Source: Candidatus Aenigmatarchaeota archaeon
GTDB lineage: Archaea; Aenigmatarchaeota; Aenigmatarchaeia; GW2011-AR5
NCBI GenBank assembly: GCA_016198685.1
Contig: JACQID010000004.1
Location: forward strand, 192,001-256,000
Reading direction: 5' to 3'
DNA length: 64,000 nucleotides
Part shown: one piece after another, positions 31,654 through 31,926 of the stretch
Layout: each line of letters starts with the position of its first letter
How positions within the stretch are numbered: position 1 is the stretch's first letter
The notes under the pieces: model-generated
Told to the model about the DNA's origin: nothing
The model's input: only the letters and a program-made list of their open reading frames with translations
Database searches by the model: none
Translations under genes and position numbers: made by a program

Positions 31654-31788
31654 GCCGGGGTAGCTCAGCGGTAGAGCGCCAGACTCATAATTCGTCCGAA
31701 AAAGGCGATTAACACTATGAGTTTCGAGCCCGAAAGGGCTGTGACATGGGATATCTGGAGGTCGCGAGTTCGAAACTCGCTCTCGGCA
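31654..31788 (+). tRNA. Elongator tRNA-Met(CAT) with 63-nt intron at 37/38 (intron 31690-31752)
   Basis: G1:C72 pair (not initiator); CCAGA/TCTGG anticodon stem; BHB helix CTCA/TGGG. Confidence 0.92.
31690..31752 (+). ncRNA. Putative intron-encoded box C/D-like guide RNA for Cm34 of tRNA-Met
   Basis: TATGAGT (31716-31722) is antisense to the anticodon loop and is followed by a k-turn: TCGA-GCCC-GAAA-GGGC-TGT-GA. Confidence 0.6.
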
Positions 31789-31926
31789 TTCAAACTCATA
31801 TTATTCCCTTATCATATGAATTATAATTCTCTCTATTAGATGCACTGCTTAAGCGTTGTCAAGGCTCTTGCCATTCTTTAATCATGCGATTTTCTTTTAA
31901 ATTAATAATAATTATTTAATTAATTC

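Follow-up and report, generated by a model that had tools for sequence, protein, structure and literature searches.

A tRNA-Met intron of an Aenigmatarchaeota archaeon as a probable single-kink-turn guide for methylation of its own wobble cytidine

The 63-nt intron of a tRNA(CAU) gene in the genome of a Candidatus Aenigmatarchaeota archaeon (assembly GCA_016198685.1, contig JACQID010000004.1) probably serves as a minimal, single-guide box C'/D'-type methylation guide for the wobble cytidine (C34) of the very pre-tRNA that carries it, with 2'-O-methylation (Cm34) predicted to precede splicing. We place the probability of this reading, which is built on sequence comparison, at about 0.78. That the intron is a kink-turn (k-turn) guide aimed at its own C34 had been proposed from the bare letters of the 64,000-nt stretch of DNA analysed here (the window), and the proposal is now supported by the anatomy of the intron, by conservation and covariation of its parts across archaea, and by a natural guide swap in tRNA-Trp.

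Results

The host gene is probably an elongator tRNA-Met

The Rfam tRNA model aligns to positions 31654-31788 with an insertion of 63-65 nt inside the anticodon loop, and ARAGORN, run in intron mode, returns tRNA-Met(cat) with the notation i(37,63), i.e. a 63-nt intron after position 37 (Table 1). The anticodon CAT occupies 31686-31688, and the anticodon loop reads CUCAUA, intron, A. On rereading, all coordinates that the sequence-only reading had given for the gene, the intron, the module and C34 proved correct to the base.

Initiator identity was ruled out by sequence, as the tRNA has neither an A1:U72 pair nor a GGG/CCC anticodon stem. The acceptor stem (GCCGGGG/UCUCGGC, followed by A73) belongs to the GCC type, as does that of the homologous elongator tRNA-Met gene of Nanoarchaeum equitans, and not to the GGGCC type of Ile tRNAs. 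Because of its acceptor and anticodon stems and its homology to the N. equitans gene, the tRNA is probably elongator tRNA-Met rather than tRNA-Ile2(CAU). Neither an initiator nor an Ile2 CAU tRNA was found in the genome by two regex scans. We note that this 93.7%-complete genome yields only 27 Rfam tRNA matches, and that many of its tRNA genes probably escape detection because they contain several introns or non-canonical ones. A search of Rfam around the intron, with E values up to 10, returned no curated family that covers it; sR23 and sR44 scored 10 bits where the cut-off is 45, and these matches, like one to a human lncRNA, lay on the opposite strand at chance level and were set aside.

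Table 1. Features of the intron-containing tRNA(CAU) gene in the window and of the related tRNA-Trp gene elsewhere in the genome.
Feature	Position	Strand	Basis
tRNA(CAU) gene including intron	31654-31788	+	Rfam RF00005, 54.5 bits, full model 1-71; ARAGORN intron mode
5' exon (nt 1-37)	31654-31689	+	cmscan alignment, direct reading
Target strand A31-A37; C34 (31686) is the predicted 2'-O-methylation site	31683-31689	+	pairing with 31716-31722
Canonical 37/38 intron, 63 nt	31690-31752	+	anticodon stem CCAGA/TCTGG closes around the intron
5' intron hairpin, variable spacer between splice site and guide	31692-31708	+	MFE and constrained folds
Guide UAUGAGUU, antisense to nt 37-30	31716-31723	+	direct reading
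D'-like box UCGA, supplies kink-turn G2n and A1n	31724-31727	+	direct reading
C-stem hairpin GCCC/GAAA/GGGC	31728-31739	+	direct reading
C'-like box: bulge UGU (31740-31742), tandem GA (31743-31744), then CAU	31740-31747	+	direct reading
Splice-conformer elements: UGGG (31747-31750) and A-U-A 3' bulge (31751-31753) with the 3' splice site	31747-31753	+	direct reading
3' exon (nt 38-73)	31753-31788	+	direct reading, cmscan alignment
tRNA-Trp(CCA) gene with 80-nt intron	contig C6 153949-154101, outside the window	-	same one-k-turn module

Anatomy of the intron

UAUGAGU (31716-31722) forms seven Watson-Crick pairs with A31-A37, and U31723 stands opposite G30 as a G.U pair. The guide abuts the D'-like box in such a way that G31719, the fifth base upstream of UCGA, is the partner of C34 (N+5 register). 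From 31724 to 31744 the layout is that of a kink-turn, with the non-bulged GA abutting the C-stem and the other GA coming after a 3-nt bulge, the sheared pairing itself not being visible in sequence; the boxes follow one another as D' then C', as in an internal box C/D motif. Direct reading thus confirmed each part that had been claimed for the module (antisense stretch, D'-like box, C-stem hairpin, 3-nt bulge and tandem GA) as well as the application of the N+5 rule to C34. The guide duplex is intramolecular and 7-8 bp long, the usual length being 10-12, and its register is exact; the boxes are degenerate (UCGA, GUGACAU), with a C.C apposition at the 3b.3n position.

Neither a second k-turn nor a terminal pair of box C (RUGAUGA) and box D (CUGA) is present in the intron, whose first part (31690-31715) is devoid of any UGA, and the intron holds no second box pair or antisense stretch that could form a second guide for U39. 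Judged by its sequence, the intron is best described as a single-k-turn, cis-tethered box C/D-like variant, and it fails as a canonical two-motif sRNA; the absence of a second k-turn or terminal C/D pair makes the earlier label of a 'minimal one-guide variant' the right one. The 5' intron hairpin lies outside the conserved core, since the corresponding segment ranges from 2 to 97 nt in relatives. We also note a second perfect complement of the 8-nt guide, AACTCATA, at 31793-31800, 5 nt beyond the 3' end of the tRNA; it is not present in the trailers of two relatives and is probably a product of chance, though it might act as a decoy or switch.

The module is conserved in tRNA(CAU) introns across archaeal phyla

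Introns of 37-130 nt were found in the tRNA(CAU) genes of close relatives (BLAST, followed by ARAGORN or direct reading), and they contain in this order an antisense hexamer, two bases, an NNGA-like box, a hairpin or short loop whose sequence is not constrained, three bases and GA. A pattern scan of 185,579 species genomes gave at least 120 matches, and the named archaea among the matches listed are Micrarchaeota (dozens), Aenigmatarchaeota, Nanohaloarchaea, Woesearchaeota/Nanoarchaeota, an Iainarchaeum and Hadarchaeota. Altogether, a parser detected the full module in 133 of the 138 archaeal tRNA(CAU) genes examined, which belong to Aenigmatarchaeota, Micrarchaeota, Nanohaloarchaea, Woesearchaeota/Nanoarchaeota and Hadarchaeota. 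Two carriers of the module can be grown in co-culture, N. equitans (with Ignicoccus) and Micrarchaeum A_DKE. Among the matches listed, 22 chance matches in bacteria served as negative controls; three of them passed the parser, all three with long loops, and 2% of shuffled sequences did so. Genes selected by their exons alone gave a similar picture: an exon-only pattern run over 371 genomes of Aenigmatarchaeota matched in 51 genomes, and a strict parser recovered the module in 48 of the 51 genes, the remaining three having a module with an irregular or very long stem. The sequence-only reading had named lack of conservation of guide and k-turn as grounds for its refutation; instead, almost every sampled tRNA(CAU) intron retains both, with compensatory changes, and these introns represent five or more phylum-level groups.

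Within 127 unique modules, TATGAG or a one-mismatch variant of it is always present. The D' family consensus is N-Y-G-A, with G at position 3, which the search left free, in 121/127 and A at position 4 required by the parser; the UCGA box itself was found again in seven homologues. A hairpin directly follows D' in 110 modules, and the other 17 homologues have a stemless k-loop. The distance from stem to GA is exactly 3 nt throughout, the bulge and both GA dinucleotides being part of the homologue search pattern. Inside the bulge, a purine occupies L2 in 120/127 and U occupies L3 in 119/127, which amounts to the RUGA core of box C, and the first C-stem pair (-1 pair), on which the search made no demand, is G:C in 86/110. 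The family consensus is therefore NYGA ... RUGA, and some relatives carry the consensus boxes CUGA ... AUGAUGA. Because the spacing from guide to D' is invariant, the N+5 base pairs with C34 in every module. Conservation of the guide is confined to the 8 nt matching tRNA nt 30-37, with flanks that vary freely, and the shortest homologous introns (23-46 nt) offer space for one motif only.

The smallest tRNA-Met introns (23-30 nt; four cases, in other families) amount to hardly more than a guide followed by a UUGA box, a loop of 2-3 nt and (G)AUGA, and could represent the module in its minimal natural form, although one of them (L046) is possibly degenerate. Matches in Heimdall and Promethearchaeati genomes have the antisense hexamer with other spacing and no clear module, and were not counted. 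An uncultured archaeon has a tRNA(CAU) of the GGGCC type, probably an Ile2, whose 29-nt intron bears the antisense hexamer without a D'-like box, which fits the module being specific to elongator tRNA-Met.

Many introns of relatives share a hairpin of the type CCCTTTCTT-loop-AAGAAAGG, located in the 5' part of eight tRNA-Met introns and in extra T-arm introns of four genes, one gene having both; it may represent a mobile intron cassette or a preferred inner helix of the bulge-helix-bulge (BHB) motif. In eight relatives the same tRNA-Met gene contains a further intron in the D arm or T arm, a D-arm intron being betrayed by an upstream sequence that becomes tRNA-like only just before GGTAG.

Guide and target covary

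Foremost among the compensatory changes are those between tRNA nt 31 and guide position 7, which in the 127 unique modules are A:U in 88, G:C in 32 and U:A in two, with five non-pairs. The A:U and G:C states both occur within the Aenigmatarchaeota family of the source genome and within Micrarchaeota, and U:A occurs in two separate lineages; this mixing of states within groups indicates several independent switches, with the proviso that relatives are not independent samples. In an alignment of 75 sequences (A1) the guide helix is 98.7% paired, pair 5:44 being AU in 59 and GC in 14, and the three closing pairs of the C-stem, each of which shows changes on both sides, are 96.3% paired. Covariation scored 0.240, compared with 0.097 in shuffles (0/500 reached 0.240) and at most 0.058 in slid registers. 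An extension into the NC-stem (4b:4n, 5b:5n) was rejected as a family feature; it looks covariant in the source order but is only 48.6% paired over all lineages.

The tRNA-Trp intron provides a natural guide swap

The 80-nt intron of the tRNA-Trp(CCA) gene of the same genome consists of a guide ending in UGGAGCU, the box AAGA, a 5-bp GC hairpin with a GCAA loop, the bulge GAU and GA. This guide is the complement of the tRNA-Trp anticodon loop, and once more C34 pairs with the fifth base on the 5' side of AAGA. The tRNA-Trp(CCA) introns of 10 relatives carry the same module, likewise with C34 at N+5. That two anticodons are each matched by their own intron in the same register is a strong argument for guiding as opposed to a by-product of splicing.

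Guide fold, splice fold and the proposed mechanism

In the splice conformer, C32-A35 pair with 31750-31747 to form the central 4-bp helix of a BHB, with U36-A37-A(+1) and A-U-A38 as its bulges; the motif is a relaxed one, since its inner helix h' is weak (1 bp). Guide fold and splice fold are mutually exclusive because U36 and A37 are paired in the guide helix and bulged in the BHB. Constrained folding gave -50.0 kcal/mol for the guide conformer, which equals the unconstrained optimum, and -48.5 kcal/mol for the splice conformer, so that by prediction hardly any energy separates the two. These models are most simply read as a switch out of the guide fold into the splice fold, and competing folds are known for the Haloferax pre-tRNA-Trp, as summarised in PMC7994747.

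The genome encodes fibrillarin (275 bits; contig C3 63104-63820), Nop5 (134 bits; contig C3 61540-62478) and L7Ae (96 bits; contig C1 248935-249207). At 313 aa, with its Nop domain at 161-311, Nop5 is a short protein, and a short coiled-coil region might bear on the assembly of a one-k-turn RNP. We note that an ORF for a HAD-family hydrolase lies between nop5 and the fibrillarin gene (contig C3 61540-63820). A plausible course of events may be outlined as follows. In the primary transcript, nt 31-37 would pair with the intron's UAUGAGU(U), and UCGA, the 4-bp hairpin, the 3-nt bulge and GA would fold into a kink-turn. L7Ae would bind this k-turn, Nop5 would dock on the L7Ae-RNA surface, and fibrillarin would then methylate the ribose of C34, which pairs with the guide base five positions upstream of the D'-like box. 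Methylation would likely come first, with refolding and splicing after it. Action in trans by the RNP of the excised intron is a further possibility, raised by the abundance of the homologous N. equitans intron.

Alternative explanations

Kink-turn-like patterns by themselves say little. This 0.93-Mb genome holds 190 instances of the pattern NYGA + hairpin of at least 4 bp + NRUGA, and shuffled versions of it hold 165-186; because of this chance-level frequency the pattern is neither evidence on its own nor usable on its own for finding more half-guides; a strict regex for two-motif C/D sRNAs (one match, compared with 0-1 in shuffled genomes) was uninformative, since degenerate guides escape it. 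Chance resemblance in a single intron could draw on the first of these counts, but an antisense 7-mer (nt 31-37) at fixed spacing from the module has a joint expectation of only ~3-4e-7 per intron (the product of 57 positions, 4^-7 and ~1e-4), and conservation with covariation across phyla excludes chance as the origin of the module, leaving this explanation with a negligible probability. The genome scan found no other antisense-plus-module site, RF02163 (sR-tMet) had no match in this genome, and no other candidate guide for C34 was thus found by either approach. Alternatively, the excised intron could be a stable RNA that works chiefly in trans, with rRNA or some other RNA as its target, and its match to the anticodon loop would then be a by-product of splice pairing. 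The abundance of the N. equitans intron after excision would suit such a role; yet conservation stops at the 8 nt facing the tRNA, guide position 7 tracks tRNA nt 31, and the guide is no splicing by-product because the BHB helix uses the 3'-terminal segment of the intron and needs U36 and A37 unpaired. We regard this explanation as extremely unlikely.

A role in the folding or timing of pre-tRNA processing deserves more attention. The antisense stretch and an L7Ae-binding k-turn might mask the anticodon, hold the transcript in a non-spliceable form until protein binds, or shield C34 (for instance from tRNA-Ile2(CAU) agmatidine synthase), all of this without methyl transfer. The mutual exclusion and near-equal energy of the two folds are what such a device would display, and a single k-turn and a short duplex are atypical of active guides. 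A masking helix, however, has no need of an invariant 2-nt spacing, and C34 sits at N+5 in more than 120 homologues and in the tRNA-Trp introns; moreover, methylation guides have the same RUGA/NYGA box cores, and other archaea are known to place Cm34 on tRNA-Met and tRNA-Trp by C/D guidance. We therefore hold a pure folding device to be unlikely. It might also be envisaged, by analogy, that the module brings an enzyme other than fibrillarin to C34, such as a cytidine acetyltransferase. C34 of bacterial tRNA-Met is known to be acetylated. Yeast box C/D snoRNAs guide base acetylation (cited in PMC7994747). Against this, the N+5 register is specific to the placement of fibrillarin, nothing found here points to an acetylating partner, and the same module occurs in tRNA-Trp, where the known mark is Cm34, so that such recruitment appears very unlikely. 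The methylation-guide reading has to accommodate some unfavourable features of its own: a duplex below the usual length, degenerate boxes with the C.C apposition, pairing at 4b:4n and 5b:5n in under half of the cells across the family, and a single k-turn where efficient methylation in vitro is reported to need two symmetric motifs (see Discussion).

Discussion

If the methylation-guide reading is true, an intron kept in very small genomes gains a concrete function, and the abundant intron RNA of N. equitans, published with 'no prediction' for a target, gains one in C34 of its own tRNA. More broadly, it is possible, at what we judge to be somewhat short of an even chance, that half-size box C/D RNPs exist naturally, that one k-turn and a cis-tethered substrate are enough for Cm34 in vivo, perhaps with one Nop5 dimer bridging two pre-tRNAs, and that methylation acts as a conformational checkpoint before splicing. 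Such half-size RNPs, if real, would explain why archaea with the most strongly reduced genomes (the DPANN, but Hadarchaeota too) have retained introns in tRNA-Met and tRNA-Trp. Natural one-k-turn guides of down to ~25 nt would challenge the rule, derived in vitro, that archaeal C/D RNPs need two symmetric motifs, and would render the minimal requirements of guided methylation directly testable. Recognition of the module would in addition improve tRNA gene calling in DPANN genomes. Cm34 of human elongator tRNA-Met is also snoRNA-guided, and both the mark and its guided mode therefore look ancient.

The closest known counterpart is the 66-nt intron of the N. equitans elongator tRNA-Met, which gives rise to a stable RNA described as 'potentially guiding RNA methylation' (Randau 2012, PMC3491384) and is represented there by 31,500 reads (supplementary file 2). 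The sequence-only reading had mentioned a proposal of this kind for Nanoarchaeum, and the proposal is real. Host tRNA, intron position and order of parts are the same as here, N. equitans having UAUGAGCU, CUGA, a 3-bp stem with a GAAA loop, the bulge GAU and GA, and the two introns are, by their sequences, evidently the same element. The N. equitans version differs in that its boxes are nearer to consensus (CUGA, GAUGA), a second GC-rich hairpin follows, and its host belongs to another phylum-level group. The available text and supplements of that study mention no C34 self-target, single-k-turn reading or wide conservation, and our literature search, which was of incomplete coverage and hence weak evidence, found no paper on a C34 self-target or on wide conservation of the tRNA-Met module.

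Guidance from within a 37/38 intron has a precedent in the euryarchaeal pre-tRNA-Trp, whose intron is a box C/D guide (Clouet-d'Orval 2001; Singh 2004; summarised in PMC7994747 and PMC4033218). According to these sources it too is aimed at its own C34, with guide and splice folds in competition, and produces Cm34 through L7Ae/Nop5/fibrillarin; it is, however, ~100 nt long and combines C/D with C'/D' and two guides (C34 and U39), whereas the intron described here has one k-turn and one guide, resides in tRNA-Met and in relatives can be reduced to 23-29 nt. Cm34 of elongator tRNA-Met is itself an established product of a box C/D RNP in haloarchaea (PMC4033218) and a predicted one in Pyrococcus (PMC7994747). 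The Haloferax volcanii sR-tMet (RF02163; Joardar 2011, cited in PMC4033218) and the Pyrococcus sRNA share with our proposal the target nucleotide and the enzyme system, but are stand-alone, trans-acting RNAs with two motifs.

Archaeal RNPs assembled in vitro are reported to need juxtaposed, symmetric C/D and C'/D' motifs for efficient methylation (Tran 2003; Rashid 2003; cited in PMC3608112 and PMC6239191). Crystallography of RNPs has nevertheless made use of engineered half-mer box C/D RNAs (Ye 2009; Xue 2010; see the review PMC6239191). Like the design proposed here, these combine one k-turn with one guide; L7Ae, Nop5 and fibrillarin bind them along with a target strand. The half-mers are laboratory constructs; the comparable design in the tRNA-Met intron is a natural one, with its substrate tethered in cis.
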